From Psammoneis japonica (lineage: Eukaryota): a stretch of 20,000 nt of DNA. How positions within the stretch are numbered: the first letter of the stretch is position 1; each line of letters begins with the position of its first letter. A program made the position numbers and the translations under genes. The stretch is from positions 354,903 to 374,902 of the forward strand of contig QPGO01000076.1 of NCBI GenBank assembly GCA_008632985.1. The letters are read 5' to 3'. This document shows, piece after piece, positions 1 to 20,000 of the stretch. The notes beneath the pieces were generated by a model, which worked only from the letters and a program-made list of their open reading frames with translations, was not told where the DNA came from and searched no databases.

Positions 1-2641
1 GGCGTGCTTTTCGTGTCGTCCTTAGCCACGCAATAAATCGAGAGCCAATAATGTGCCTTTTGCAGTGGGTTCTTATTCAAAGGTTCGCTTTCAGATGACT
101 TGTACTTGTCGGCTACTTCAACCTCGAGTACAAGACCCGCATCCCAACCAACGCTGTCAAATCGGCTGACCTCTCCGAGCGACCGATGCTTACGCTTGTT
201 TCTGATGTTGTCACTCTTTACGTGCCCCAAAGTCCGCCGAGTCTTGTACACGACATTGGCAGCATCAACAGAATCTCGGGGATCCGGAAGATACGCAGCA
301 TTGCTCGTAGACACCCCTACAAAATCACGAGGTAGTTGTGTCCAGCCAGCATAGTCATGAGACCTTATAGAGACGTTTTGAATGTAGTTTGGAAGATTGG
401 ACACATCGGTACCATTGTCAAAGCCAAAAAGCACATAGCCGTCGAACCATGGTGGAATAGACCATCACCGTGACTCTCACGATCTACTCTGGTTGTAGCA
501 GGATAATGAGGGATGGGGAATGGAGGGATGTGAGGATTCCGGACATAGCTGCACTGTTTGCGCTTACTCTATCGCTCCCTTCAGATGTGGTGCTGCAGTT
601 ACCGATAATGCAGCCGTAACAGTGAATCGTCCACCTATTGCAATGCGAAGAAACGAAAGCAGATGACATGGTCGAGACAAAATGCTTCCAAAGGCCAGCG
701 AACCAGCCTCGTCGGGATCTGATGCGTTGGAAACATCTTCAGCGCTTGCAGTTGTTGTCCGCATTCCGTCAACCGAGATAGTTTCACTATCAATGACGCA
801 TCCCGGTGTGATTTGCTTGCGGATTCCGATAAACCCTGGGACATCCGCTTCAATCGTGATGACTAAAGATCTTCTTCGCTTTCGTTCATCCGAGAGCACA
901 GCATTCACGGCAATGGAACCGGCTGGAGTGGGCACCGTGGCGCGAACTGAAGGATTCCGAGCTGAAACAAGGGCGTAGCAACGTACTCGGCATATCCAGG
1001 AAGCAGGGACTCTATGCCACCTAATACGTTCGATAGCCACGCTGTAACTCCGGAACTCCAGGGGTGCAGTACGATGGTCTAGTCGGACCCTCATCACCTT
1101 CCGACATGAATGAAGCCCATTCTGGTGAAAACAACTCCCAGAAACAACCCCGTCCAAGCTCGAGCATGGGCTCCCAACACAACTTGATAGAAGCAATGGC
1201 GTGATCCATCATATCAGCGTTCCCAAGCGCTTGAAGGATCCAGTATTGGTTAAAAGGAGAATGGGAACATATGTTGACAGAATCGTTTAGCGCATTGTGA
1301 AAGAAAACCTTGACATCTTCATCTGTTACGATCCGGCATTGATAGCGTTTGCAGCAGAATGAACTCCGAATCCCTAGGCCACTCTGGAACTTGCCTCAGG
1401 CGGTTTCCTAAATGAAGAGTGATTGCCTCATACTTCTTTGCTTCCGGCTCCATACCTGCGAGATGTAGGGATCGCGCAAGATCTCGACACGCCCTCACAA
1501 CAAGACCTGCAAATGCAAGATGAGCCTCTCGGTTGCACTCGTCGTGAACGGCATGGCCACACCACCCATTTCCTATTCGATCGTCCCACCCAAACCAGAA
1601 AATATCCAAATTTGGTTCAAGAAAGTCCTGTATTCTCTTGTTGAGAATCGACATGCAGTCTGGAGCAAACGTTCGAAAGCCAGCAACGTCACCAGATGCC
1701 ATGAACCAATCATTTACACTCATGGTCCAATAGATTGGATAAGCCATAATTTGTTGGTCTACCACATCATGCCCATGCACATCACCACTGTTGGTTTGAT
1801 TCAGCTCGTCTCTAATGAGCTCGTAAGAGCAAACGCCACCAGTGCCGCTGCCATTGTCGGATGACCGTCTCCTTGAATCGCATCACGATCCCCTCTGTCT
1901 ATTAGAATGGAATTGAAATCATTCTCCTCAATGTTGAGCCGAACACCATACGCACCAGTGTACCATACTCGGGAAAGGGCGTCATCGGACGCGTTAAAAG
2001 ATCCCGTGTATGGATGGCTTGACTTTGGCAACTAGAGTAATCTTTGTGATGTGCCATGGCTCTTGATTTAGGGGAGCATCAAAGCAAATCCAGGTGTATC
2101 GGACGCCCTCATAGAGTTCCTTATTCGTCTCGAGTCTGTAGGTTGAACGACCATACTTTGTGAGAGCTTGTGTCTTGCCGGATAAGGTCTTCTGAATTCT
2201 GAAATGGCTGCTGATACATTTCCAGTGAGATCGGGACTCTCAAATTCCAACCATGCGGCACGTTCGACACCCCAGTCGAGAAACAAACAACCCCTGCCCT
2301 TAATCGACATGTTTGATCTCGCCCATCACCAAGGAGTGACTCTGCACCCAAGACAAAATTTTGCTGGCCGTCTTCTAGTACTTGTAGCTTGCAGGGCGAT
2401 GAACTCTATAAATCTGCGGTGGCGCGTTATAGACCGAATTGTTCCATGTGTAGCGTACAAGCGGATCCCCACTGAACGGCTGCGGTGTCCCACACGAAGA
2501 ACAAAATCCATGCAAGTCCTCAAACGGTTCTGGTGCTTCACTACTTGCAGCTCCACAAAATGACCAATTTACGCATGAAAAGAGCACGACTGCTGAACAG
2601 ACGATTAACTCGAAACAGCGACTGGACCGCGACGATGCCAT
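1..2641 (-). pseudogene. GH78 alpha-L-rhamnosidase-like secreted glycoside hydrolase; frameshifted (pseudogene or uncorrected indels), 3' end beyond the left edge
   Basis: Minus-strand ORF fragments are collinear. Signal peptide (MASSRSSRCFELIVCSAVVLFSC), then LFLDWGVERAAWLEFES, YRLETNKELYEGVRY, YTGSFNASDDALSRVWYTGAYGVRLN..ILIDRGDR, GWDDR, SPFNQYWILQALG, CFWELFSPEW, SYC/HPWSSGVTAWLS and VPTPAGSIAV. A C-terminal DGYVLFGF frame stays open to base 1. Roughly ten or more frame changes are needed to join them. Confidence 0.75.
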
Positions 2642-2989
2642 TTCGCTTTATGTTTGTTTTTCCATCATAATTCCCTTGTGGCAACGGAGAAGCATGGAAC
2701 TGGATACACTGCGATGGATCATGCTGAGTTAGAAACTCGATCGCACTTGCCGACCGACAGACGAATTATTGCGTTCGTCCACCGTCCATCCGCGTGAGGA
2801 GGTCGCCTCTTTTCGCGCTCTTGCCTTTCTTCGCCACGACAACATTCAATGGCGGCAAGTGCATGTAGGTTTTCCCAACTAGCAGCGCCCGTGATGGACA
2901 ACACAAAACATACAGTGTAGGAGTACAAAGCAAAAAAAAGTGAGCGCTGATGAATCTGATGACCACATTTTCCCCAATTTGTCAAGGAT

Positions 2990-3130
2990 GTGAATAAATA
3001 AATACAAATTTGAATATATTGTTAATTTCACATCAATTAAAGGTTTATCAGGTAATAATAATTATTATTTATAGACGTTCCCGCCATTAACATAAATACT
3101 TTCTAAAAGCTGGATATGTATTATGAAATT
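2990..3130. promoter_or_regulatory. AT-rich island between divergently oriented genes (possible shared promoter region)
   Basis: Abrupt very AT-rich stretch (gaataaataaatacaaatttgaatatatt...ataataattattatttatag) between the GH78 start (2641, minus) and the glycosyltransferase start (3238, plus). Function is inferred from position only. Confidence 0.3.
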
Positions 3131-3237
3131 CAAAAAGCAAACAGTGGAGACAAAAACAACTTCACAAAAACAACAAAAATACCGATCAACCTCACAACAT
3201 ATCTTGATCTCATTCCATTTCAAAAGAGCCAAGCACC

Positions 3238-4619
3238 ATGGATCATTTGGGCTTACGCATGCTTATTGCTGCGGTGTGTTCCTTTCTTGTATTTACAAAC
3301 GCCATGTATTTCCTTGCCGGGACAGCAGCGGTTGAACGTGATGGTGAAGTGTCAAAACAAGATAAAACCGCCGCCAAGAAAACCAAAGGAACAAGAAGCG
3401 AGTCTTCTGACAATGACTTGAAACTCGTTATCTGTGCTCGTGTGCGGTACGTCAAAGAGCTACACGTAAATATAGCTGCGGCGCTAATTTGCTACGCTTT
3501 CAGAGTCCGATGTTCCTCACGTATATTTGTCCCGTTCTCGTCTATTTTATAAACAGAAACGAGGCCCCATATCTTGAAGAGTGGATCGAACATCACCGAA
3601 TGATTGGCTTTGACTCTTTTTTGCTGCTCAATCACGAAAGCTCGGATTCGACACAGTGTGTTTTAGACTCGTATGCAGAGCAAGGCATTGTGACTCGGCT
3701 TCCCGACGACATTGACAAGGACAGCTACCACAGTGGTGGAGAAAGCGCCGTCTTTACCTCATGTGCCAATCATTTGTTGAAACAAAAAGAGGCGAATCGG
3801 ACGTGGATGTTGACTCAAGATCCGGACGAATTTGTTTGGTTTAACGTAAGGTTTGGTGTTCCAACCATCAAGCATGCTGTGTGGTTGATGCTAAAATCCA
3901 ACAGTTTGACAAGGAGCGTGCGTATTCCTAGACTTACGTTTGGCGCTTCTGGTCAAGAGAAGTATGAAAATGAAATGGTGATGAAACGCTTTACTCGTCG
4001 TTTCGAGGTTAAGAATTGCCCTCGTGGTGGCAAGCACCAACAGCATCGACGATTGTTTAACAAAACCGCACCGAATTCGTACTGCGAAACGCACCATACT
4101 CGACATTCCTTTGACAATACCAAGAGTATGACTTTGGTGACAGAAATGGCACTGAAATGCCGTCGTCTTGAGACCAAGCGAAAAAAGACGAAAATGAGCA
4201 GAGCCAAGTGCCACAATCCTCACAGACACAAACTGGCCGATGATGTATCGACCAAAATCGCAACCTTTACCGACGGCAAACAAGAGGCTTCCGATCCAAG
4301 GTATCTTGATGAAAAGGTTGTTGGAGACGATATACAGATATTTCATTATAGGACCAAGAGTCGACAAGAATTTTATGAACGAACCTGTGCATCCGAATTC
4401 GTGGACAAGTTTCGTCGATGCAAGGGCTGCTCACCGGCGAGCTACTTTGACTTGTTCCAAACCTACGCCAACAACTACCAAGATGATCGAATGCTTCACT
4501 TTGCCCAAGCCCTTGAACAACAAATGGCATCTGAACCGAGTATCGTGTCTCATTGTGATACAAGGCCACGAAAAGTGTCTCGTCAATTCATAAAAAAGTG
4601 CTTGAAGCCGCAGAAATAG
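3238..4619 (+). CDS. Type II membrane glycosyltransferase, GT2-like/GT92 (DUF23) family; exons 3238-3446 and 3557-4619, about 423 aa
   Basis: N-terminal hydrophobic anchor (LRMLIAAVCSFLVFTNAMYFLAG). The GT..AG intron 3447-3556 joins CG+A to give ICARVRNEAPYLEEWIEHH..GFD.F, the typical GT2_4/GT92 start. DxD motif DPDEF and the late IFHYRTKSRQEF motif are present. Confidence 0.8.
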
Positions 4620-4790
4620 CGCGCCACGAGTAGTAGCATGATCGTCATTCCCTTTAGTTAGTAAGCTTGCTGTCCTTCGTCTTGGAGTACTATTTCTAAA
4701 GCAAGCAAGATGACACATTTTAGTATAAATTAAACTAAACCACGTTACGCCCTGCCATGTTTATGATACACCCGAAGTGAGAGGGGAGCC

Positions 4791-4960
4791 TCGCTCTACT
4801 CTACTCTCTACCGTACCGTAGCTAGTAGAGTAAAGGGTAGAGAATACCTTTAGCTACTAGCTAGTAGGATGGCCTAATAAGTACTAGCTAGAGTAGCTAG
4901 CTCTACTCTAGCTAGAGTAGAGACTAGCTAGCTAGGCTCTAGAGTAGATAGAGAGTTCTC
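4791..4960. repeat. TAG/CTA-rich low-complexity patch containing a 22-bp perfect palindrome (4901-4922)
   Basis: Built from ctag/agtag/ctact units. CTCTACTCTAGCTAGAGTAGAG is self-complementary, and 13-bp arms at 4884-4896 and 4903-4915 also pair. Confidence 0.8.
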
Positions 4961-5507
4961 GTTAGATGAGCTCATATCCTGAATTCGATTCGGGTTGGTC
5001 GGATAGATCGGGGTGATGTGTGAACGTTCCCATCCAAGCGCCGACAGACTTCAACTTGGCGTAGATTCTACGTGGAACCAATACTGACGCAAGTTGATGG
5101 AGCAGTGACGCGTGGAGCCGCACAAATTCGTAGAGTAGAAAAAACGACAAACGAAAAAAGCAACGAGTGATTGCTGCTGTTGTTCTTGAATCTCCTTTAT
5201 TTCTTCGAGAGAGCGCAACAACAAGTGTGACGTGAGCATCAAACTCTATTGCTGCTCCTTTGACCATTTAGTTTTAGATCTTGAATTAATTTTGTGGGTT
5301 AAATTACCGTGAATCCCCGACGTCTTTCATCTTTCGACGGTATGTACAGAAAACGGGTGTTTTTGTTTGATGGCTCGAGAAAGACGAGTGAAGCAGGAGA
5401 AAAAATCGGAGGCTGCTGAACTGAACGTGTTGAAACTCACTAGTTCTTTGTTCACTCATTTACGTTGTTGATGCTTGCAGTACGAAAGTAAATAATCACA
5501 TTACAAA

Positions 5508-8500
5508 ATGAAGTTTCACTCGGCAGCCCTCGCTACGTTGGTGGCCGCAACAGCTTCGAATGAAGTGGCTAGTTTCGCCATGCTACCGTCTCCTACAAAA
5601 ATGGGCAGTGCGTTTGTTCCACGCACAGTCCTTTCCGCTACAGTTTCGTCTACGCCTCCTCCTACTCGAGGATCCATGAGCATGTTTTCACTCGCGGGTG
5701 GTGGTATCGAAGAGCTTCAGACACTGGTCGACGCATCTCCCAAGGTGACAAAGCAAATTGTTGTGAAATCTCCAAAAATGTGGAAAATTGCAGGCCTGGC
5801 CACGATTCCAGTGTCTGCCGCCTTGGGCTTTGGATTGGTCCCCGCCTCGGGGATTGCAGCCAACACGGTAGGTGCCATGGTATCGGGTATTGCGGGCGCC
5901 GTGGGCAAGTCGAAAATGGATGAAATGGCAGAGACGGCTGCGAAACCGGCACTTGCGCAAGTTTTGATTGACAATGGTGTCGATGAGCCATCTGTTACAC
6001 ACGAGGCTGTCCTACAAGTCCAACAAGACTATGGAGTCTTGGAGGAAGACTTTACGGCCTTGTGCACAGACATTTACGCAAAATACCTATTGGGCATGGT
6101 GAAACACAATATGGAACCTAGCACACGGGAACTCAAGGAACTGGATAAGCTCAAGCAGTGTCTTGGCTTGGAGAATCTTGCCGTCGGTGAGGCCCATGCC
6201 GCTGCTGCGGCTGAATGGTACAGAACCACCACTCTTGTAACTCCCGAGGAAGAGTTGGACGACCCAGAGCATCCTGATCGTGTTGCCATGGACAAGATGC
6301 TGTTCCTCACGGAAGGAGTTTTGCGACAGGGAGGCGAGACACAAGAAGCGTTTACGTATGAAATGACTAGAGTGGCCAAGGCAATGAATCTTTCTCTGTT
6401 GACTGCAATGGATCATGTTTCGGACGTGACTGAACCGTTTTACATGAAGGCCCTCAAGTCTGTTCGGGCAAAGCTGGACAGCGACAAGGTTTCGCCAGAA
6501 ATGCTACAGCGTGCCCGCAACACCTTGGGCTTGTCGGAAAGTACAGCAAAAGACCTGCACATTAGTGCTCTCAACGACGATGTCAGAGAACTTTTAGGAA
6601 AAGTCGACAAGGATGGAAACGAGGTCAAGACCGAGGATATGGATGACTTGAAATTCTCACAAGATGCGATTGAGCGCGTAAGTTTGGTGCCTTGCATGTT
6701 CTTCGTTTCATACGTTGTGTATTGATATGTCCTTATTCTTTCGCCGTTTGGACTACTCTTTCTCTTACAGCTTGCAAGACTCTCCCAAGTTTTCGGATTG
6801 TCTGAAGCTGACGTTGAGTACGAAGTCACGGTTGAAGCGACGCCTCTATTCCAACAGACTGCTCTGGCTGCCATGAAGGACGTCCTGGCCGGAAGCAAGA
6901 CCCCCGATGAAGCCTGGACTCTATTGGAAAAACGCCGCGAGGAACTCTTGTTGATGGAGAGCAGCTCAAAGGATTTGTTGAGCTCCATGGTAATGCAGGC
7001 TCTTGGTGGTCCTCTCGAGGAAACCAACAAGTTTGCCAAGGTCAACAACGAGGCCGCGACCTATGAACACTTGTTGGAAGCGCTCGAGGCAAAGGAAGCT
7101 CTTATTGCTGTCTTGTCGAAAAGTGGCTTTGACGAGTTTGAAAAGTTTGACGAGACCTTTTGTGATCCCCGGAACAAAAATTCTGCTTGTGGATTCCTGG
7201 AAGACACGGAACGTCTCAAAATGTATAAGATCTTTTTGATCAGGACCGTACGTAAGAGCGAGGATGGTAAGCTCACCAAGGAAATGTACGATAAGGTCAT
7301 GGAGGTGAAGGGCTTGCTGGGAATTACCGATGCCGAAGCTGAGAATGAAGCCAGAACCTCCTTTGGACCTGAATTGCAAAAGGCGATGAAGACGGCCATG
7401 GCTGAGATTCTAGATGATTACACTCCAGAGCTTGCCAAAAACCTCAAGAAGAACATTGAGGAAGTAATGGACAGCTACAAGCTATCGACCCAGTTTTTGG
7501 AAGAAATTGGTAGTGGTTTGTACGCAAAGGCTGTTGCTATTGTTAGCGAGAAGGTACGTGCACAAGATTTCCTGGAGAGCACATACATTTTTTCTGAGTT
7601 GTCGTTGGGTTTTGCTCACATGCGCTCATGTTCGAATATATAGACCCCGGCTGGGGTTCCAACGGAAGAGCAGAACGCTGCTCTTGATGCCTTGCGATCG
7701 TTGTTTCAGTTGGAGAAGGAGGACACCTACGCCGCTCACATTAATTCCTTCGCCCCGGTATACAAAAAGAGCGTTTTGGAATCCATGGGCAGCACGGGCG
7801 TGATTCTCCCTGAGTTCAGAAAGCCGTTGGAAGAGCTCCGTGACAGACTTGGTGTTTCAGAAGAATCGACAAAGAGTATTTTCTTGGATGCAGTCCGAGA
7901 AAAGATGGTGCCAATGGTTGAATGGATTGCAAGTGAGCTGGAGCGAACTATGCTTACGCAACAACAACTCTCACATCGACGCAAGAAGGATATGGGCGAA
8001 GATCTCTTCCAAACTGGCAAGGGCGCAACGGTAAGGATGTTGAAGCGTTCACTTGCAGAGATTTTACGACTGTTAGATATACCCATTAACGTTCGTCGCC
8101 CTTTATTCTTTCTTCTTCTTGACAGGGGGTTCTTGGTCTTGGCGCGGAGGCAAACATTATGAGTGATATTATGAATCTTGTTGACTTCTACTTGGAGAAT
8201 GATATTTGCGAGCAAAAGGAGGTTGGAACAAAGACTTTCGAAAAGAGAATCCCTGCCGAGGAGGAGGACGGCGAGGACGAAATTGTCGAGGAAGAAGTGC
8301 CCGTGTTTGAAACGACTTATCCTGTGACGGCTCTCGGCGAAGATTGCATTGACAATGAGATTGCCGAATTGCTTTATCGTCAGTTTGTAGTAGGAGGCTT
8401 CACAACGCAGGGTCCACAGGGAGAGCGATACGAGGGTGCCAAGGCCACCTTTGGTGGAATCTTGGGATTGACGAGCGAAAAGATGGAAGAGATTGGCAGC

Positions 8501-9190
8501 AACATTGGAAGCACGGTTTACGACAACTTTGTAACCAACGCCATGAAGACCAAGGGTGAAATGGACCAACAGGACTTGATGTTCTTGGCCAATATCCAGT
8601 CCAAACTCGGTCTCTCGTCAGAGCAGGGCGAGAAAATGTTGATGGCTTCTCAACGAAAGGTTCTGAGCGAAGAAGTCGATGCGCTCATGGACGAGCCTAC
8701 CCCACAAGGCGTCAAGGCCTTCCGTGAAAAGTGCAATTCCATTGGCATGAGTCTTTCGGAGGACGTTGGTATTTCCAAGACGCGCTTGTCCCGCATGTTC
8801 GAAGCCGAAGTCATTCCTCCACTCAAGTCGGGTGAGGTTTCTACCGAGAATGGCGGTGAGTTGGTGCGAGAAGTCCAAGAGAGTCTTGGACTAGAGCAAG
8901 AAGAAACAGAGCGATTGTTTGAAGGCATGTTGATGAAACTCTCCAGCACGGCGTATGACTTGATCAAGGGTGAATTGATGCGTGGCCGTCAAGACACAGC
9001 GGTTGAACCAATCAAAGAATTGGTCCGCTATGCCGCCTTTGTGGAGGGCGATCTTGACTTGGACGTGCCGGAAGCACTTGCGAACCAAATTTACAACGTA
9101 TACGATGCACTGGACTTTAGTGACCAAGACAGCGAAACCGTAGAAGCAAACAAGGAGTTGCTCAAAACCACGCTGGGACTGTCATCATGA
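5508..9190 (+). CDS. TIC110: Tic110-like plastid inner-envelope protein-import component; exons 5508-6677, 6771-7553, 7644-8030, 8126-9190, about 1134 aa
   Basis: Three phase-0 GT-AG introns (93, 90, 95 bp) join the four ORFs in frame. The bipartite presequence has a signal peptide ending VAS-FAM (ASAFAP-like) and a Ser/Thr-rich transit peptide. Two N-proximal hydrophobic helices are followed by a long acidic helical region with repeated 'L...LGL' units, matching Tic110 architecture. Confidence 0.75.
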
Positions 9191-9818
9191 AACTAAGGGG
9201 GAGAACAGTACTTTATTTTGTAGAGAGATTAGCAAGAGTTTTAATAGCTTATATCTGTGATTTATATAGTTTACTAGGCCTGTACACTGCAGTTTTAGGG
9301 CTATTCTTGCCCGTCCGCGCCCATGTGAAACCTTACCATTTTTACCAATGATGTGGTTTAGTAAGAGCAAAAGATTGACTCGGACGACTGAAACTGCGAC
9401 ATGCGCGACCGCCGATTGATAATGTACGGCAAACTACGTAGATTTCTACGGTGGACGATCAAGTCTGAGCTTTTCGTTCTCATTTCTCATTCTGCAAACG
9501 TCTTATTGTTTCTTGTTGTTGGTTGTTACCTTCGTTGAGCATCCCCATAAGCGCAACGATACACTTATTCTATCGCCATTGATAACATAAGCCTTTTTGG
9601 GTGATACGCGGGGTCTGCTTTTTGTTTACTTTTGTGAATGCGAAAATTACCGAAAGCTTGGGAATACCGGTACAGCTATCACGGACAAGAACTCACGTAA
9701 AAGTCTGAGTTAAAGAAGATCGGATCAAACACCTCGGTTTCTTACGTGCAGAGAGAGCGCTTTATTGAACGATTCTGTCTTTATCTGATATAGAGACAGA
9801 GACGCGGAGAGTACTAAA

Positions 9819-10268
9819 ATGAGTTTTTCCAATCATCCTCTGCAACCACCCGCGAAAAGACCTCGAAGCACGCACTCTTTTCATCCCAACAAGAACAACA
9901 CGTCCAAGCGCCCTCGAGATTCCGCTGCCGTCGAAGACGACCCGAGCCACTCATTCAAGAGAATGCGTATCGAAGAATATGCTTCTGTTACAGCAGTACG
10001 AGATGATGAACACAACATGATGATTGACGAAAACGAAGAGCAGCACCACCGACAACAAGTTCCGGGACAAGACACGAGCTCGGATCATAGCAAGCCTGCA
10101 TCAACAAAGGTAGAAGAACCCAATAAAACGCCCGTAAAGGATTACTCCCAAGTCAATCACGTGTTGGGTAGTTTGCACCAAGAACGAATGCGACGACAAG
10201 AGCGAGGAGATGCGAAAACAAAGAAGCGTCACGTCAAGAAGCTGCCCAGTAATTCTCAATTGTATTGA
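9819..10268 (+). CDS. Small hypothetical, probably nuclear, low-complexity protein (149 aa)
   Basis: Single ATG-TGA ORF with NLS-like clusters (PAKRPR, KRPR, FKRMRI, KTKKRHVKK) and a helical motif DYSQVNHVLGSLHQERMRR. Confidence 0.6.
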   Translation: MSFSNHPLQPPAKRPRSTHSFHPNKNNTSKRPRDSAAVEDDPSHSFKRMRIEEYASVTAVRDDEHNMMIDENEEQHHRQQVPGQDTSSDHSKPASTKVEEPNKTPVKDYSQVNHVLGSLHQERMRRQERGDAKTKKRHVKKLPSNSQLY

Positions 10269-10801
10269 ACGCCATTACGGAAGAACGCGCAAGCACGCCG
10301 CTTTGAATACGGTAGCTATAGTCTAGAGACATCTTCAAACTGTACGTAGCGACTACCTGATAGGCCTAGAGTCAGATATGTAGTTTCAGATCTGCCAGAA
10401 AAAGGTTTTGCGAAAGGATATGCCAGCTGTTGCGGATGAACTTTCCGGAGGATACTGATCACAGCACGCTCTCTAGTTGCGGTGACTCTTGAGAGACTTG
10501 CATTTAGGCCGGCTTTTATTTACCAAGAAGCACGTTTGAGCGCTCGAATGATGTCTCTCTAGTCAGCACGCATAAGTAGCCCGGTGTTGAGTGACATGGT
10601 CGTGCGCAACTTCGAATGCCAGGGCCAGCGAAATGTTATAAGGATACAGCTTGAGAACGCAAGAAGAAATGATCTTTGCTTTTATGTATTGTGTTTCTGT
10701 GTATAACATGACTAGCATTGTTCTTGCGCAGTGTTTATTCATTTTCTCATTCTCCCTTTCACCATGCAGTGATGGCCTTTGCAATCACACATGGCAATCT
10801 C

Positions 10802-11985
10802 TCAAAAGTCCTCAGTGACTGTAATGCAGCGAGTGTTCACAGCATCCTTTAAGTAGAAGAGGAAGTCGTCACACTCGTTCTCTGCAACATTCTCAGTCCC
10901 ATCATTGGAGCACAGCGATAAATCCAAGGTGTTGATGTCGTCGTACAGAAAAGTGCCCGCTGCGCCCCCCTCAAACGCCATGTTCTGCTCAAACACACTC
11001 TCCGCAATAGTCAATCGAGGCATTTGCCCTATCGTAGTCGCCAAATACCCACCGCCGAAACTCGCAGTGTTCTCTTCAAAGGATGTTTTGTATATGGAAA
11101 TACGCTGTCCCGCCGTGAGAGATGTCGGTGAGGTAAGGGTTGTCAGGAGACCTCCTCCGCCAGTGCCAGAAGCGTTGTTACCAAAAAACTCACTAGACGT
11201 AATGACAACATCCAAGGCATCCTCCACATACACACCTCCACCTCCTGGAGCATCGCCTTCGGCAAACCTGCTCTTGTCTACCAAAACACCGCCGGTTGTC
11301 CGAATAAACAAGTTTCCACCACTTAATTGGTGTTGGCCTCTTTCAAATCTACATTCTAAAATACGATGCGTACCGCTGGAGATGATTTCGACATTTCCTC
11401 CGCCTCGTCCTTCCCCAGTGCTACCTCCTCGAATGTCCATCTTGGCCATTGTAAAGTCTTGACCCGTTACGACAAGATTCCGATCCGAAGACGTTGTGCT
11501 GCTCTCTATGATGCAATTCTCCGATTCGCAGCACAAGTAAATGCCAGACTGAGTAACACGGACGGCGAAAGGAGTAGTGATTGTGTTTGATCCGCAGAGA
11601 GAAACAACCGAATTTGGGCCTGCTCTATCCAGCTCCGTCTGAAGGCTCGCGAAGTTCGAGACACAAGCTCCCGTTGTTGGCGTGCAGGCCGGGACAGGAG
11701 TTGGAGCGGCGGAGGTCCACAATTTGGGACTGATACACTCATCATTCCAACATTCTCTAAGAGTCTTTGCCAAAAGACATCGTTTTCGTCATGGTTGATA
11801 TCCCTCTCGTCATCCTGTTCGAAAGTGTTACGGAGCATGGAAGAAACAGCTTTCTTTCCACTGTTCCGCCTTGAAGGGATGTTGTTTTGTCGCATGTCAC
11901 CATCACTGAGCGCCAAGATCATCCCCAGGAGAAGCCTTACCGGTAAGCAAAGAGCAAACCCCGTCATTGTAGCGGAATGTTGCAT
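10802..11985 (-). CDS. Secreted right-handed beta-helix (pectin-lyase-like/POMP-type GG..FxxN repeat) protein; one frameshift near 11715-11725
   Basis: Signal peptide and pro-region (FWQRLLENVGMMS) lie in ORF 11506-12027. The frame then switches to ORF 10802-11773: SAAPTPVP linker, Cys-rich cap, and repeats GGGNV, GGNLF, GGGGVY, FFGNNA..GGGGL, FEENTASFGGG, FEQNMAFEGGA. Start is ATG 11985 or 11967. Confidence 0.65.
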
Positions 11986-12304
11986 GTGATGTTGCGATCT
12001 GGATTGTTCGCAGAAAAATGTGAGCAAGCGATACCTTTTCAGTTGAAATTCAAAATATCGTTGTTAAGTACACATTTTATATGTACCGTATATTAGCAAT
12101 TTCTATTTCAATTTAATAAAGAATTAATAATTATATTAACGGTTGATAATCATACAGTCATGACCATTGATCCTCGCACCACTTTAGAGCGAGGATGGTT
12201 GCAGTAAACGACGAGGGATGGAGGCGGGGGCATCCCTCCTTCTTCCTTCTCAGTTGGTAAGCTCATGCACTTGGAAACCACATGCAGTGAGAAAGTGGTG
12301 CATA

Positions 12305-13051
12305 CGTGTGAGTTCATGTTGGGAAATCCTCTCTCAGGTTTGTGGGGTGAGAAAAAAGTGGCGCAGAGCAGGAGACAGCAGCAAGAGCACACACACCACC
12401 ACCACCACAACAGGAGCACACTTCCAAAGTGTTGTGTGTGTGGGCAGTTGTGTCATCCAAGAAGTGCATCACAACCAACAAAATCTTTTTGGATGGTGGT
12501 GTGCACCACACCTTGCAGTGCTGCACAAAATGCCACCAAAAATTCTTGCCTTGTTGTTTGAAGTGCTCATCATCATTCCTTCATCTGACTCAGCCCACTC
12601 TCTGTGGTCAAAATCCTTTGACAACTTGAGGCCCTGCCCTTTTGGCTTGGTCAGTCTTGCAAGGGACAATTGTGCTGGTGGCCTCACAGAGTCACATGGA
12701 GCAAAAGATCATGGGGGGAGGGGGGGGCGGGCAGGCTGCTCCTGGTTGTGGGAAGCGTTGGTCGTGGGGGGGAAGGAGGGCTCATCAACGGCCACCACTG
12801 CTGCCGTGTGTGCTGCGGCATCCTGCAAAAAACACTTTCCTTCCAGTTTGTGATGCACTCTGGTCCCCCCCCCAACCCACTGACAGGGTGAATCCTTTGA
12901 CGACATCGTGGGTGACTTGCTCCTCATGTGCCACAGAGCTTCTGTGTGTGTGTGTGTTGGAACCTTCCAGCAGTGCAGCAAAAGGCAGCATCTGCAGTGG
13001 CCAAAAATCCCCCCCCCCCCCTCTTTTCCCTCTTCTCTTTCTTCTTGTCTT
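12305..13051. other. TpA-free, CpG-poor, CA/TG-rich non-coding flank immediately upstream of the 5' LTR
   Basis: No TA dinucleotide found from 12305 to 13389. Only about 9 CpG in this 750 bp. Runs of cacacac/gtgtgtg and G/C homopolymers. No credible ORF. Confidence 0.8.
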
Positions 13052-13249
13052 TGTCAGCCTGTCTGTCTGCATGTCACGTGATGGACAGACTGGATGTGGA
13101 TGATGGCTGGACCATTCAGACAGACGAGAGCAGATCTCTCTGAGATCTGCTTCTCACTTTCTCATCTGCTGGTGCTCGTGTCATCACAGTCCTGGCACTT
13201 CAGGGAGTCTTTCATGCCTCTGTCACCATTGACCTTCGGCATTCTGTCA
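13052..13249 (+). repeat. 5' LTR (about 198 bp, TG...CA)
   Basis: 13052-13097 matches 19955-20000 at 41 of 46 nt. The right end is inferred from ...CTGTCA followed by a PBS-like sequence, because the full 3' LTR is outside the window. Confidence 0.75.
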
Positions 13250-13261
13250 GGTCATGGCCGC
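13250..13261 (+). promoter_or_regulatory. Putative primer-binding site (degenerate)
   Basis: GGTCATGGCC directly after the inferred LTR end resembles the GGTTATGGGCCC half-tRNAi-Met PBS type of copia, allowing for a TA->CA change. The match is imperfect. Confidence 0.35.
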
Positions 13262-13427
13262 GTGCTGTGCCACAGACCTGTGCGCCAAGCTTTCTGTTTC
13301 GATTCATTTCTTTTGTGAGCCGATCGAGCGAGCCTCATCGTCTGATCTGACAACTTTTTGTCTCGCTTTCCCGGCATTTTTCATGACCGTAGAAACACAC
13401 CAGATTTCTGCGCGTGCATGACCAAAA

Positions 13428-15387
13428 ATGGCTCCACCAACTAAAACCATGGTGTCTTCCGACCCCACAAAGCCCACTCTTCCGTCCATTGCAGAGATCT
13501 GCTGTGAGTTCGAGGCACACACAACGATGCCACATCTACATGGCTGCCTGGGTGCGATTTGTGCGGACTCCACAACTGATCTCGACCCGTTCTTTGACGA
13601 TCCAGAGCGCGTGCAACCCAAGAAAGATTTTGCGGACATGCTTCGTGATCACTTCATCCACGAACGGAAAAGTTGCTCTTCAGAGCTCCCTCGTCCCTTG
13701 CAACCATGGATTCCGTCACTGTGTTGATGCATCCAATTGCATCATCCTCAACGATGGCACCCTTTTCATCATGAGCTTGACTCCTGACCAGAAAATGTTG
13801 TTCAGGGAACCTCCTGCATGTCACGACGACTCTCCCCCTGGGATGCGAGCATGGTGCCAAAATTTCCAACGTCATGCCTTTGATTCAGGATGCCACATGC
13901 ATCCATTGTGGTGTTTTGCTGAGGACCACGGTGGTGTGAAAGGTTTCGAGATCGGAAACGGCAAGGATGATGACTTGCCTCAATGCATGTGCGTCCACTG
14001 CAAGGAAGCTGAGAGCTCTCTCCACAAAATCTCATCCAAGTCGGGTGTGTTCCCCAAGAACAGCAAATGTCATCGGATTGTTGCATCATGCTGCGGCAAT
14101 GGACACAAGGCTCTCAAGCAGATTGTCTGTGAGAATCATCCTGCTTTCGACCACGATGCTGCTGGACTGGTTGACTCCCATCCTGTCCAAGGCAATCGAT
14201 CATTGACAGACTGCCACATGATCTTCAATGATTTCCCACAGCTGCATGCCTGCATTTTTGATGCGGACTCTACGTTGAACGATCCACGGGAGATGACTGT
14301 CTTTGTCAAGAACACCAAGCACTCCAAGTTCTCATCTCGTGCCACCAGAGATGAGACGCGTTCCAGCCCTAGGTGGGAGCTCGTAGCACTGACGTGTGAC
14401 AACAATAATTTTTATCATCCGTCGTATGTTTCGTACGTAGATTTCTACGTGTGATATTTAAAAAAAAATTGTCCAGACTCGCTGTTTTGCGAAGCCCCAG
14501 ACGTTTTATATAACAAATTTATAGAAACAATAATGCGCCAGTTACATTCTTCAATGTCTGAAGAATGTAACTGGCTAAGTAAAAAATGATGTACTTCAAT
14601 CATGTGCGAGTTTGTGCGTTCGCAAAATTGCCTCATTTTCTGTTGGCGATCATTGACATTTTAATTACCGTATAATTTTACTACGGAGCTCGCACGTAGA
14701 AGTCTGCGGGCCCAATGTCACACGGATTCCCACCTACGTCTGGAACGCGTCATGAACGGAAGTCTCCAGCTGTGCAGAAGAAGTGCACAGATGCACAGAT
14801 TGTCGAGACTCTCTCTGATTTCCTCTGCCAACCGGACAGTCCATCCTTTGCCACTCGTGCGACGCAATCCAATCCCCGCCGCACATGGAATCGAGCAGCT
14901 GAGGATGCGCGACGCACGGCTGTCAATGTCAGTGCTCTCCAGATCCCTGAGACATCTCTTCCTGAACCAGTCGATGACTCCACCACTGAAGACACTGGTG
15001 CGGAATCTCCACCTCTGGACACCTTTGATGCTTTTTGTGACGAATTGCATGAACTCGAGATCCCTTCTACGGACGAAGATCGACTTCTGCACCATGCATG
15101 TTTGGCTTCAGTTTGCAAACTGAAAGTTGCTCCGAATGAAGCCTCCAAGAAACCATGTCTTGTCTGCTCCGGAGAGCATTTGTTTGATGACTGTCCGGCC
15201 CTGAAGAACAACCCACACATCAAGGGATTTCACATCCATTTTTGTCAATTCTTAAAGAGGGAAGCAGCTGTGCGTGCTTCTGAGTTCCAAGGATCCAAGG
15301 TCTGCTCCCACCTCATCATGAAAACCTGAAAATCCGCCCAGATCTGGTGCTCCGCCCTCGGATTTTCAATCGGGCCGTCGCAGCTAG
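13428..15387 (+). pseudogene. gag: gag of the copia element, interrupted by a MITE and frameshifts
   Basis: ORF pieces 13428-, 13414- and 14715- are collinear. Removing the MITE plus one TSD restores an in-frame ..SRATRDERKSPAVQKK... Zinc knuckle CLVCSGEHLFDDC at about 15156-15194. A plausible end is ..SDFQSGRRS-TAG at 15387. Confidence 0.75.
14355..14751. mobile_element. Non-autonomous TIR DNA transposon (MITE), 397 bp, 24-bp TIRs, 4-bp ATGA target-site duplication
   Basis: Left TIR GACGCGTTCCAGCCCTAGGTGGGA (14355-14378) matches the reverse complement of 14728-14751 (GACGCGTTCCAGACGTAGGTGGGA) at 22 of 24. ATGA sits at 14351-14354 and 14752-14755. The interior is AT-rich and non-coding, and excision restores the gag frame. 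Confidence 0.92.
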
Positions 15388-15447
15388 TTTCGGATCTCCG
15401 ACACTGCCCGTTTTTCTCCTCACCGAGACAAGACTGATGTCAGCGGG

Positions 15448-18400
15448 ATGACCTTGAAAGAGGGACCAACCGTCTCGTCATCTGCCACTGAAGTGCCTCT
15501 TTCTTCACAGATTGACATGGATGCCACCCCTTCCACTGCCACGAAGGTGTCATTTGATGCCAGCAAGTTACCAGATGATGACCCTGCTCCCATGGAAGAC
15601 ACCGTCGATGCTGCTTGTGCTCCGGATCCTTTGGAACAGGGGAGGGAAGACCCAGAAACACCGGATTTTGAGGAACACATTGACCTCACCTGCAATGACA
15701 TGGCTGTTGAAGATGGTTTTGCTGCCATCAATTCTGTTCGTGTCACTCCGATCGATCCACACCAAGCGAGTCACTCTCCTGAGCCGGAACTGTTGCGCTC
15801 AACTTGTTCTGTCAATGGGGCAAATTTTGCTCCGAATGAGTGTTGTGCTCAGTTGGATGCTGGTGCTGATGTTGCATGTGCAGCGACCGTGACCTTCTCC
15901 ACCGACACCAAGAATTCACTCCGTCCCATCCCTGTCCCCTTGCTGTCAATCCGGCCCTTGGCCATCAAGCTGTCCCAGTTGGGTTCGGATGTCTTCGCAT
16001 CCCTGCAGAGAACTCTGATGGATGTGTTGAGGTTCGTGCCTGCTGCCACCCACAGATCCAATCTACGTTGGTTGATGAGCGACTCCTCCTTCGTCAAAAT
16101 GGCCCTCGTCGTGCAGACCACAATGTTGATTGTGTCCTCAAGTTCCATGATCTCGGCACCTGCAAGTTTGTTGCACGACACCGATTGCACAAGAATCAGG
16201 ACATCATCATTCATGGGAAATTGATCAATGGCAAATGCTTTGCTCACCCTCTCATCCTCCCAGAATCTAATGATGAATTGGGTGCATCTGTTGAGCGCCT
16301 CAAGACCAGTGACCCTTCCTTTGCTGATGAGTGTGAAGCAGTCTCTGTGCACATGATTGAAACATGTGACACCTGCCAACATGACGCTCTTCGTGCTGAA
16401 TGCAAGTTGATCCCCCGAGTGCATCAAGATGTTCCTTTTGAAGAGCATGCAGAGAAGAATGTCCCTGTCCAATCTCTCAAGGCTGACACGGAATGCCTTT
16501 CATGGCATCAGCGACTTGGTCATCCGAGTGATCACTGCCTTTGTCATGCCCATGAACACGGTGTCCCCAAGTTTGCCCACGGAACTTCTCCTCTCGACAC
16601 TTGTCCCACATGCACACAAGCAAAGCAGACAAAGGAACCTGCTGGTCCGAACACTGCTCTTGCTGCCACCCAACCCTGCCAAGGTCTTGCGGTTGATTTT
16701 TCTTTCTCTGGCCTGCGGTCCAAGAACTCGGAGCGCACCAAAGACTGTGTTGGATTGAATGGCGAGACTTGTTGGATCACCATCTACGATCATAAAACGA
16801 AGCATCTCCACCGTCCAAGGCAACCCCTCTGAATTGGCTTCGCCACTTTCTGGAAGAGCACTCACCAAAATGTCCAGACAAATGTGTGTTTGTGGATCAA
16901 GGAGGTGAATTGCATCAAAACCCAGAGGTTCGGTGACTTTTCGAGGATGACTTTCACCGCGCAATTTGTCCTGCGGGAAAAGATGCTTCAAACCAGAGGT
17001 GGCCCAGTGGAACGCAGTCATTTGACTGTTGCTGATGCCATCCGGGCGATGCTCATTGGTGCCAATTTGCCCACAAAATTCTGGCCCTGTGCTTTTCATC
17101 ATTTCACTCGAATCAACAACGCTGTGCCATCCCGCGGACAACCTGCTGCTCCGATTGCTCTTGCTGAGCTGGTCGAAAGGATGATTTCAAGAACTTTCGC
17201 ATGTTTGGTTGCCAAGTGTGGGTGCGTGCGTCGAATCACCGCCCAGCAAAATTTCGGTCTGTCTCTTGCAAGGGTGTTTTCTTGGGCCATCTTCCAGACA
17301 CCACCAAGAACATCCTTTGGTGTGACACCGAGACGTCGCGTGTCAAGCTTGCCAAGCACATTCATCATGATGAGGGCATGAATGATCTACCCCACGACTC
17401 TCTTCCCCTGAATGTGGTTCACTTGGAGCATGCTCAAGATGGCAAGGCTTCACCTGCCAAGACTGAAGAATCTACGATGGACGAGCTCCACTTTCATGGG
17501 AATCCTTTTGCCAAGACCATTGCGCATACGATGAAGGGGCCGTTTGCTGATCCGACATTTGGAATTTCATTGACTGCGGATGATCTCCATCAGCAAGTGT
17601 TTGTCTCTGATGTCAAGCATGGTTCTCCTGCTGCGCGTCTTTTCTGTTCTTTGAAGGCAACCTGCAACAAGATCAAGGGTGCGTGTGTCGCATTGATTGA
17701 TGATCACCCTGTCTTTGTGGCAGAGGAGGCCATCAAACGTTTTCGACAAGTCTGTGATTCTGGCAAGACTCACTTTGAAATCGAGTTTGCGCCGGAACGT
17801 CAACTGGACTCCCAGGCTCTACAACGTGCCCTGATGGAACACAATGTCTGTGCACCGACTCCTGACCCTGATGACGAACATGTCCCGGAAATTGCCAATG
17901 CTGACATGCATGCTGTTGCTGCCATCCGTCACCCTGATGTTGATTTTTCCGATGTGGACGATGATGACATCCCTCCGTTGATCCATGTCGACTGCGACAA
18001 TGGTGTGGTCAACATCTGCACCATTTCATCTCATGCCATTGCTCCGGAGGAACAAGCGTCAGGTGCTTTCACTCGCCATTGTCTCAAGAAGCTGGGCACC
18101 TGGCCCGAATGGCATGTGGGTGAATTCAAACAACTTGACCAATTCCATGAGTTGGGGATGTTTGGTGCACCGATTGAATGTCCAAAGGATGCCACAGTCC
18201 TTTGTCCACATTGGCAACATGATCTCAAGCATGATGGCACGCGACGATCTTGACAATGCTGCGATGGATCTCCTTGTGCTGCGTCAATCCTCCATTGTCT
18301 TCACTCAACCCACTCCTCTTGTGTGGAACAACCTGTCCAACGCATGTTTTTTGCCCTTGCTGCGACTGTGAGCTACCCTGTGTTTGGTGGTGATGCTCAT

Positions 18401-19780
18401 GATGCCTGTGCACACTCTCCACGACCGTCACACCCCGTCTGTGTTGCTGTTGACGAAGCATGCGCGACTTGGCACAAGGCTCGGTTTGGCATTGATTTGG
18501 ATGGGACCATGGTGCTTCCGATGCAACATGCACTTCAGGGACACCCAGAAGCCAGCGTGCTCTGGGAGATGCACATCAACGGCATTTTGTCGATGTGAAT
18601 CCACTTTTTCGCAACACCGCTCATGACAAATGCATCTGTTCTGCTGCTTTTGAGGGACACAAGATCTTGCTCCTCCATCAGGTTGATGACTTCTCCCTTG
18701 CGTGTCCTGAAGAGTCCCTTGCGATCAAGACACACGACAAGATTGGCAAAGCTCTTGAATTGGAATCGGAAACCTCCCTGCCTTTCAAGTGTCTTGGCGT
18801 GATTGAAGAGTTCAATGGTGTGGATGTTCATCAACATGATGACTCTGTTGGCATTGCTGTTCACAGCCATGTTGATCGGGTTTGCACCTCGCATGGATGG
18901 TCGACACCGACGGAAGAGGAACTCGACGATGACTGCAAGGCTGCGCCAATCCCGGTTGACTCTTTCGTGAACTGTGCACTGCTGTTGGTCCAGCTGAAGG
19001 AACCCCGGAACATGCAGAGTTACAACAAGCTGCTGGTTTTGGGTGCCGCACTCCACTTGGTGAATTGTTGTGTGCGCATGTTGTCTGTCGATTGGATGTT
19101 GGACATGCCATCACTGCTCTCTCCAAGTTCTCTGCCTGTCCTGCTTTGGTTCACTGTGATGCACTCAAGGGAGCATGCAAGTGCCTTCGACGCACCAAGC
19201 ATTGGGAACTGAACTGCAAGAAGCCCACCCGAGACTCAAGACTGCCCGCCTGCCCCTTCGAACGTCTCACTCCGGACCCGACCCTACCATCGTTCCCTTT
19301 CCCGGAACATGATCATCAACTTGTTGCCTTTTTGGATGCTGCATGTGGCAATGACCTCCGTAACCGTCGCTCTGTGACTGGCTGTGCTTGCATGTTAGCC
19401 GGTGCTGCACATCCTTTTGATGCAAGACCCAATCGGCGACTGCTGCGAGTTCTGCGGAAGCTGAATTCTGCGCTGCTGGCACCACTGCCAAGCATGTCCT
19501 TTACCTTCGTCACATCCCACATGAACCAGGCTTCTCTCAGACGGAGCCAACCCCATTGCACATTGACAACGAATCGGCAATCAAGATCGTCAATCATTTG
19601 ATCCCGACCGAGCGATCCCGTCACGTTGAGGTCCAGTTTTTTGCGATCCAAAAATGGAAGGAAGTGGGCAAATTGTCACAAGACATGTCCCTGGCATTGT
19701 CAACCCTGCAATGACCTTGCCAAGGCCCTTGGCTGGGTGCCACATGCCCGCCACGCTCGACGCATGATGGGACTGCTGTT
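15448..19780 (+). pseudogene. pol: pol (protease, GAG-pre-integrase, integrase, RT, RNase H), inactivated by transitions, stops and frameshifts
   Basis: Protease AQLDAGA (~15850); WHQRLGHPS..CPTC (~16500-16615); integrase VER..IRAML..KFWPCAF; FGCQVWV..GVFLGH; RT region SCVEQP, ALQGHPEA..WE, HQVDDF, FNGVDV, RLDVGHAI..LSKF; RNase H FLDAACGND..RRSVTG and NDLAKALGW. Boundaries are approximate. Confidence 0.9.
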
Positions 19781-19945
19781 GATGTTTTTTCCGCGGTGGC
19801 CTCCCTGCTGCACATTGCCCCCTTGTTTGATGGCGCATTGGGCATGGACACTTGTCGTGTCCTGTGTCTGGTCTCTCTGTTTCCTTACATCATCCCTGTT
19901 CTTTGGTTTGATCTGCCCATTCTCTATGTTGAGACATTGCAGATC

Positions 19946-19954
19946 AGGGGAGGG
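19946..19954 (+). promoter_or_regulatory. Polypurine tract
   Basis: AGGGGAGGG immediately precedes the TG of the 3' LTR. Confidence 0.85.
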
Positions 19955-20000
19955 TGTCAGCCTGTCTGTCTGCATGTCGTACGATGGACAGACTGGATGC
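19955..20000 (+). repeat. 3' LTR (first 46 bp; truncated by the window)
   Basis: TGTCAGCCTGTCTGTCTGCATGTC... is a direct repeat of 13052 onward. Confidence 0.9.

Follow-up and report, generated by a model that had tools for sequence, protein, structure and literature searches.

Composition of the window

The window, i.e. the whole stretch of 20,000 nt that was analyzed, is composed of two parts. In the first part (1-12303) the observed/expected ratio was 0.60 for the dinucleotide TA and 0.98 for CpG. From 12304 on, outside of a single insert of 397 nt, the ratio for TA fell to 0.00-0.07. This TA-poor domain (12304-14354 and 14752-20000) carried 25 TA in 7300 nt. The following features were found in the first part and at the start of the domain:

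Within 1-12303: gene for a glycosyltransferase of family 2/92
Within 1-12303: gene for a Tic110-like plastid envelope protein
Within 1-12303: gene for a beta-helix protein
12304-13051, no strand: TA-free stretch, strongly depleted in CpG, that separates the host genes from the LTR of a copia element, with 0 TA where 40.8 were expected

The loss of TA was confined to the mobile-element domain and the neighbouring genes (1-12303) were spared. In the flanks of the insert the depletion of TA (0.05-0.07) was coupled with an enrichment of TG (1.68-1.74) and CA (1.41-1.55); across the whole domain the values for CA ranged from 1.41 to 1.78.

The TA that survived in the domain were not randomly placed. 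A CTAC or GTAG context was found for 11 of the 25, compared to 77 of 518 in the genic part. Read on the + strand, 10 of them were CTAC and one was GTAG, and five sat in TCTACG. This suggests that CTAC/GTAG is a context disfavoured by the mutator, possibly with a strand bias.

The erased domain sets in 748 nt to the left of the copia LTR; the preceding TA is located at 12303. Within 12304-13051 the ratios were 0.19 for CpG, 1.69 for TG and 1.78 for CA. The stretch contains long runs of C and of G, and its CpG value is far below that of the copia element itself (0.63-0.66). It may represent an older eroded layer that received the copia element, or a spill-over of the erosion into host DNA.

A separate observation concerns the intergenic region 4801-5200 between the glycosyltransferase and the Tic110-like gene. 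Here the TA ratio reached 1.35, and a CTAG-rich overlapping palindrome is located at 4906-4953.

A degenerate copia retrotransposon and its mutated gag

The element that hosts the insert is a dead copy of a Ty1/copia retrotransposon, from which about nine tenths of the TA have disappeared. Its components are:

13052-13096, + strand: start of the 5' LTR (the only part with a partner inside the window), direct repeat of 19955-19999 at a spacing of 6903 nt
13729-14354, + strand: gag upstream of the insertion, frame 1, aligning to residues 238-444 of the library protein P0003
14754-15326, + strand: gag downstream of the insertion, frame 0, with an alignment that starts at residue 445 of P0003 and at residue 434 of P0002
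15156-15194: gag zinc knuckle, in the downstream gag part
15388-19954, + strand: degenerate pol in several shifted frames, with 20 TA compared to 302 expected
16476-16628: gag_pre-integrase domain (PF13976), in pol
17171-17374: retroviral SH3-like domain (PF25597), in pol
19955-20000, + strand: start of the 3' LTR, truncated where the window ends, repeat of the 5' LTR start

Open frames of pol alternated among all three phases. The two LTR starts were identical at 41 of the 45 overlapping positions, and the four differences were all located in one hexamer, which reads CACGTG in the 5' LTR (13075-13080) and CGTACG in the 3' LTR (19978-19983). Since these are transitions at TA and CG that separate the two LTRs, at least some of the change postdates integration. 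The hexamer is palindromic, and the four transitions, which affect one TA and two CG, are symmetric with respect to the two strands.

When the full library was searched by HMMER for relatives of the upstream part of gag (13729-14352), 243 proteins were obtained at E<=1e-3, and the lowest E-value was 9e-54. Longer homologous proteins were not found at E<=1e-10. The start of gag (MAPPTK..., 13422-13730) lies in frame 0, which stays open as far as 13727, and frame 1 carries the continuation of the conserved part. This indicates a frameshift near 13700 besides the interruption by the insert.

The amino acid composition of gag was unusual. The upstream part contained no Tyr at all, but 6.7% Cys and 7.2% His; taking the gag fragments of the window together, values of 0% Tyr, 5-7% Cys and 4-7% His were found. 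Among the 60 first-listed gag matches of the library, 57 had 2.5-5.9% Tyr. An alignment was built from 32 of these 60, namely the homologues with at least 600 aa and more than 2.5% Tyr, leaving aside the other 28 and the remaining 90 listed matches. In ten columns at least half of the 32 homologues carried Tyr. The window reads Cys in four of these, His in five and Phe in one, and Tyr in none. The gag around the insert is thus mutated, as originally predicted. The conserved tyrosines that are now Cys or His are the coding trace of a change from TAY to TGY or CAY.

The near-equal numbers of Cys and His (4:5), together with the excess of both TG and CA, indicate that both strands were hit. This argues against the editing of one RNA strand. 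Editing at the RNA level before integration was rejected as the main cause, since both strands are affected and the two LTRs differ.

Three close relatives of this gag in the library, P0003, P0008 and P0009, had 0.0-0.6% Tyr and 3.5-4.1% Cys as well. These proteins are therefore likely to be eroded copies that were predicted as proteins elsewhere.

Anatomy of the insertion

The insert that separates the two halves of gag is made up as follows:

14351-14354, no strand: left copy of the target-site duplication ATGA; only the removal of 401 nt restores the frame
14355-14751, no strand: MITE-type non-autonomous DNA transposon of 397 nt with intact TA and CpG
14355-14378, + strand: left terminal inverted repeat of 24 nt, 92% complementary to 14728-14751
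14537-14575, no strand: central perfect hairpin (inverted repeat I2) with arms of 17 nt, 100% complementary, and a loop of 5 nt
14728-14751, - strand: right terminal inverted repeat of 24 nt, 92% complementary to 14355-14378
14752-14755, no strand: right copy of the target-site duplication ATGA

The flanks of the insertion site read AGAGATGA / element / ATGAACGG. When the element was removed together with one copy of ATGA (401 nt), a frame of 399 codons without any stop was obtained. Removal of the 397 nt alone left 14 stops in gag. The claim that excision restores the gag frame therefore holds for the pre-insertion state and fails for a removal of the bare element.

The two halves of gag abut exactly. 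In the alignment to P0003 residue 444 is followed by 445, and in that to P0002 residue 433 by 434. In the alignment of the 32 homologues the halves end and start in the adjacent columns 755 and 756, reading TRD/ERK as the homologues do, and no residue was lost or gained. The longest stop-free stretch of the insert in any frame was 71 codons, in keeping with a small element that lacks a transposase gene. The inverted ends, the target duplication, the colinearity of gag and many copies with different flanks (see below) support the assignment of 14355-14751 to a MITE-type insertion, in agreement with what had been predicted. Considered by itself, this is a nested MITE insertion of an ordinary kind. 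A second copy of the MITE was not found within the window.

The element resembles Sola-type MITEs in its terminal inverted repeats, the 4-bp duplication, the length below 500 bp and the many copies, as far as these are described in the available part of the source (PMC10741241). An assignment to Ginger is unlikely, as the ends of Ginger are given there as TG...CA (PMC10741241), whereas the element starts with GA and ends with TC.

Folded as DNA, the MITE forms one long hairpin with a minimum free energy of -82 kcal/mol (z -9.3); none of 100 shuffled sequences folded as well. A search of 14200-14900 against Rfam resulted in two sub-threshold, miRNA-like matches on the central hairpin, with 19 bits compared to gathering scores of 97-245. 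A shield of the tRNA type was not supported, since ARAGORN predicted no tRNA in the window and the Rfam matches were sub-threshold only.

Two parts of the insertion are uninformative with regard to its age. The duplicated ATGA lies in GAT-GAA (Asp-Glu) and was never able to hold a TA; it can therefore not serve as a clock. Likewise, the mismatches between the inverted ends are transversions and TA is kept in both arms.

The change of composition at both ends of the insert

Within 14355-14751 there were 29 TA in 397 nt (observed/expected 0.86). The preceding 1303 nt (13052-14354) and the following 1303 nt (14752-16054) contained four TA each (0.05 in both cases). The counts given originally for the insert and for the stretch before it were exact. 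The rate of the domain predicts 1.36 TA for a stretch of this length; the probability of 29 or more was 2e-28 (Poisson), and the Fisher test resulted in P = 9e-24. The number of CpG in the MITE was 26 (1.52), compared to ratios of 0.63-0.66 in the copia element.

The positions of the switch can be narrowed down. The terminal-most TA of the MITE are located at 14370 and 14735, 15 and 16 nt inside its ends. In the flanks, the nearest codons of Tyr columns are CAC at 14320-14322 and TGC at 14784-14786, which lie 34 nt to the left and 33 nt to the right of the MITE. Taken together, these sites confine the switch to two intervals of 49 nt, each of which holds one end of the element. The change thus coincides with the terminal inverted repeats, as had been proposed. 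Since mutated sites are present at a distance of 34 nt or less from both ends, no protected halo surrounds the MITE.

The context of the TA does not account for their preservation. A CTAC or GTAG context applies to only six of the MITE's 29 TA, compared to 11 of the 25 that survived in the flanks, so that the resistant context is not the explanation.

One contiguous sequence therefore contains both compositions, and the switch is found at the ends of the element. The insert serves as the internal control that it was proposed to be: with an unmutated insert present in an eroded element, the loss of TA cannot have been caused by a bias of sequencing or assembly in this region.

Copies of the MITE and of the copia element in sample contigs

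For comparison we used contigs from four runs of one public sample, which is possibly the source of the window itself, so that the comparison is not independent. It rests on 40 of 246 variant rows, 37 of them in the flanks and three in the MITE.

The summed contig depth was 49,630-456,305 in the bins of 14384-14735 and 491-5,530 in the bins of the flanks, where depth does not equal copy number. A single position was supported by up to 105 contigs for one letter (the majority letter at 14702). Past the right end of the MITE, 45 contigs run into unlike DNA, 32 of them behind 14751 and 13 behind 14752, and the agreement with the consensus was 0.36-0.41. This low agreement points to many different insertion sites, and hence the MITE belongs to a multi-copy family. 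Furthermore, the loose ends of the contigs fix the right end of the MITE at 14751.

Among the 40 of 246 rows, the copy in the window differed from the family majority at three of its 397 positions. At 14434 the window carries T and 65% of the depth C, giving a TA where most copies read CA. At 14702 the window carries G and 87% of the depth T. At 14706 the window carries G and 59% of the depth A, giving a TG where most copies read TA. Position 14705/6 is hence the sole TA, among these rows, that was lost with respect to the family majority. At all three sites the letter of the window was present in other contigs as well (13-41% of the summed depth), so that none of the substitutions is private. 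The original prediction regarded the loss of many TA relative to the family as evidence against it; what was found is a loss of at most one in the rows compared.

Variant right ends were also present in the family. Ten contigs depart at 14722; they carry TG at the position of the inverted-repeat TA and CCCATC at that of the terminal CGCGTC. A further fifteen contigs diverge at 14746 and end likewise in CCATC. The contigs with the variant right end belong either to a subfamily of the MITE or to relatives of it that have been eroded.

In the flanks, the differences between the window and other copia contigs were of several kinds. Among the 37 flank rows, the other contigs carried TG opposite a CA of the window at four sites (8 rows), TA opposite a TG at two sites, CG opposite a TG or CA at eight sites, and TG or CA opposite a CG at four sites; the remaining 15 rows were differences of other kinds. 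A change at TA in the direction from A:T to G:C was thus observed in nine of the ten Tyr columns (Cys or His), in the LTR hexamer and at the two sites where TA was kept elsewhere.

Near the insertion site one contig showed a joint of 14355 to 15104, which is not an empty site. The listed contig pieces were all short; none of them ran across the stretch, and a joint of 14354 to 14756 was not among them. A blastn search with the MITE against at least 120 metagenome stretches, selected by a loose degenerate pattern of the ends, gave a single pattern match of 21 nt, attributable to chance; each of the 80 stretches listed held the pattern just once. In a scan of viral contigs the MITE had 0 matches.

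Order of the insertion and the erosion

When one transposon interrupts another, the inserted element is the younger of the two, and the unequal decay of the layers provides a relative time scale. At this locus the marker is targeted erosion of TA and not neutral divergence, and the contrast between the layers is almost all-or-none.

This contrast can be expressed as exposure (rate x time). With none of 29 or one of 30 TA lost in the MITE, the 95% upper bound of its exposure is 0.10-0.16. For the copia flanks, with 24 TA kept of an estimated 228-327 original ones, the exposure was 2.25-2.61. The MITE has accordingly taken at most about 4-7% of the dose of its flanks. A dose below about 7% shows that erosion is no constant feature of the locus by which any sequence present would be rewritten quickly.

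The reading that we favour, at a probability of roughly 0.7, is that the MITE landed after the TA erosion of the copia element. The original prediction had offered a later arrival and an exemption of the MITE side by side. The former is the more probable on our data. The structure of the insertion, the mutated gag, the sharp switch and the similarity of this copy to its family are direct results; from these and from the evidence discussed below we infer the order of events, and also that MITEs are not intrinsically refractory.

According to this reading, the eroding process would have acted on DNA in place, changing TA on either strand to TG or CA while CpG decayed as well. It would have been essentially complete when a copy of the abundant hairpin-type MITE transposed into the Asp-Glu codons of the dead and already TA-eroded Ty1/copia gag, a step that would have duplicated the four bases ATGA. 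Less than about 7% of the earlier dose would have been delivered since, and the TA and CpG of the MITE would have been kept because of the little time spent in the domain.

Alternatively, the MITE was present during the erosion and was exempt from it, being refractory by its shortness, by shielding through the hairpin or a bound protein, or by the lack of a methylation or small-RNA mark. All 29 TA and 26 CpG were kept inside a domain with a TA ratio of 0.05-0.07, and the MITE forms a strong hairpin (z -9.3), which is what an exemption would lead one to expect. There is also a precedent in fungi, where RIP is weaker below about 500 bp and short MITEs are said to escape it, according to the part of the source available to us (PMC9970103). 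However, the sharp switch without a halo would require a protection that stops at 34 nt or less from both ends of the MITE, which favours a later arrival. Additionally, the erased domain exceeds the retroelement, beginning 748 nt before the LTR. This suggests an action on the whole domain, which a nested insert should have shared. The CpG ratios (1.52 in the MITE, 0.63-0.66 in copia and 0.19 to the left of the LTR) also favour a later arrival, even though the intact CpG could result from a general protection rather than from youth. Finally, the MITE copy carries no private substitution among the rows listed, which likewise speaks for a later arrival and against an exemption.

The last of these points depends on the speed of the process. 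If the erosion was as fast as in Bigelowiella natans (see below), the lack of private substitutions over 397 nt says little about age, and an element that arrived early but was protected could not be told apart from a late one. Altogether, we consider an exemption unlikely. That a hairpin MITE is truly refractory inside a targeted domain, with a protection ending at its own termini, appears decidedly doubtful. Such a refractory MITE would show what the mutator reads, e.g. a minimum length, a guide RNA derived from the retroelement or a chromatin mark that was not acquired, and it would explain the abundance of the family in a genome where the other transposons are destroyed.

It is quite improbable that the copia element was already TA-poor before it reached the locus, either from a mutated source or by pre-integration editing, in which case the MITE would date no burst in place and would postdate the mutation only trivially. 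Most of the former TA sites in the 904 flank bases do match the majority of the other copia contigs, with only four doublets and two TA-retaining sites among the rows listed, and the depletion of Tyr in P0003, P0008 and P0009 indicates that mutation of this kind is widely shared among members of the family. On the other hand, the LTR hexamer shows changes at TA and CG after integration, both strands are affected about equally, and the TA-free zone extends past the LTR. The doublets, with CA in one copy and TG in another, furthermore represent independent hits in different copies.

An assembly artefact or a gene-conversion patch that joined the TA-rich 397 nt can be dismissed as extremely improbable: the MITE family is highly repeated, a setting prone to assembler error, but neither a misjoin nor a conversion would yield a 4-bp duplication, complete inverted ends and gag halves that are adjacent to the exact residue.

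The locus provides a clean natural control and, with a MITE that most likely arrived after the erosion, a relative date for a rare and barely described mutation process.

Comparison with known mutation systems

The only description of this TA-erasing process that we found in print is a preprint of 2026 on Bigelowiella natans (Mettrop et al., bioRxiv 10.64898/2026.01.13.699255). A literature search for the TA erosion of diatom transposons yielded no paper on this subject. In the part of the preprint that was available to us, a TpA-specific hypermutation of integrated giant-virus and virophage DNA is reported, with changes from TA to TG or CA only. It was found in 11 of 15 mutation-accumulation lines, and the mutation in hypermutable regions was about 1000x that of the rest of the genome. 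An adenosine deaminase is the agent proposed by its authors (10.64898/2026.01.13.699255).

As far as the same part of the preprint goes, both systems share the change from TA to TG or CA on either strand, with TpA depleted and CpA and TpG enriched. In both, foreign or mobile DNA is targeted and ordinary genes keep their TA. Moreover, the activity in only a subset of the B. natans lines is what an episodic reading needs.

There are differences as well. The host studied here looks like a plastid-bearing alga of another lineage, and the targets are a retrotransposon and its surroundings, whereas viral inserts are the targets described for B. natans in the available text. The erosion is near-complete here (TA 0.05-0.07), compared to a Rho of 0.45 given there for the NCLDV region. 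CpG is lowered too at our locus, where the process is known from the sequence and not from rates in real time. Unmutated nested inserts are not described in the part of the preprint at hand.

RIP of ascomycetes is similar in that transposons are inactivated by dinucleotide-specific mutation and, according to the part of the source available, short MITEs remain unmutated and still proliferate (PMC9970103). The direction of the change is different: RIP makes TpA from CpA, whereas TpA is destroyed here. RIP itself (C:G to T:A, creating TpA) was therefore rejected as the process at this locus. Additionally, the MITE described here is located within the mutated tract and not elsewhere. In this abundant family, the retention of TA in relation to the age of the copies would distinguish a continuous process from an episodic or a selective one.
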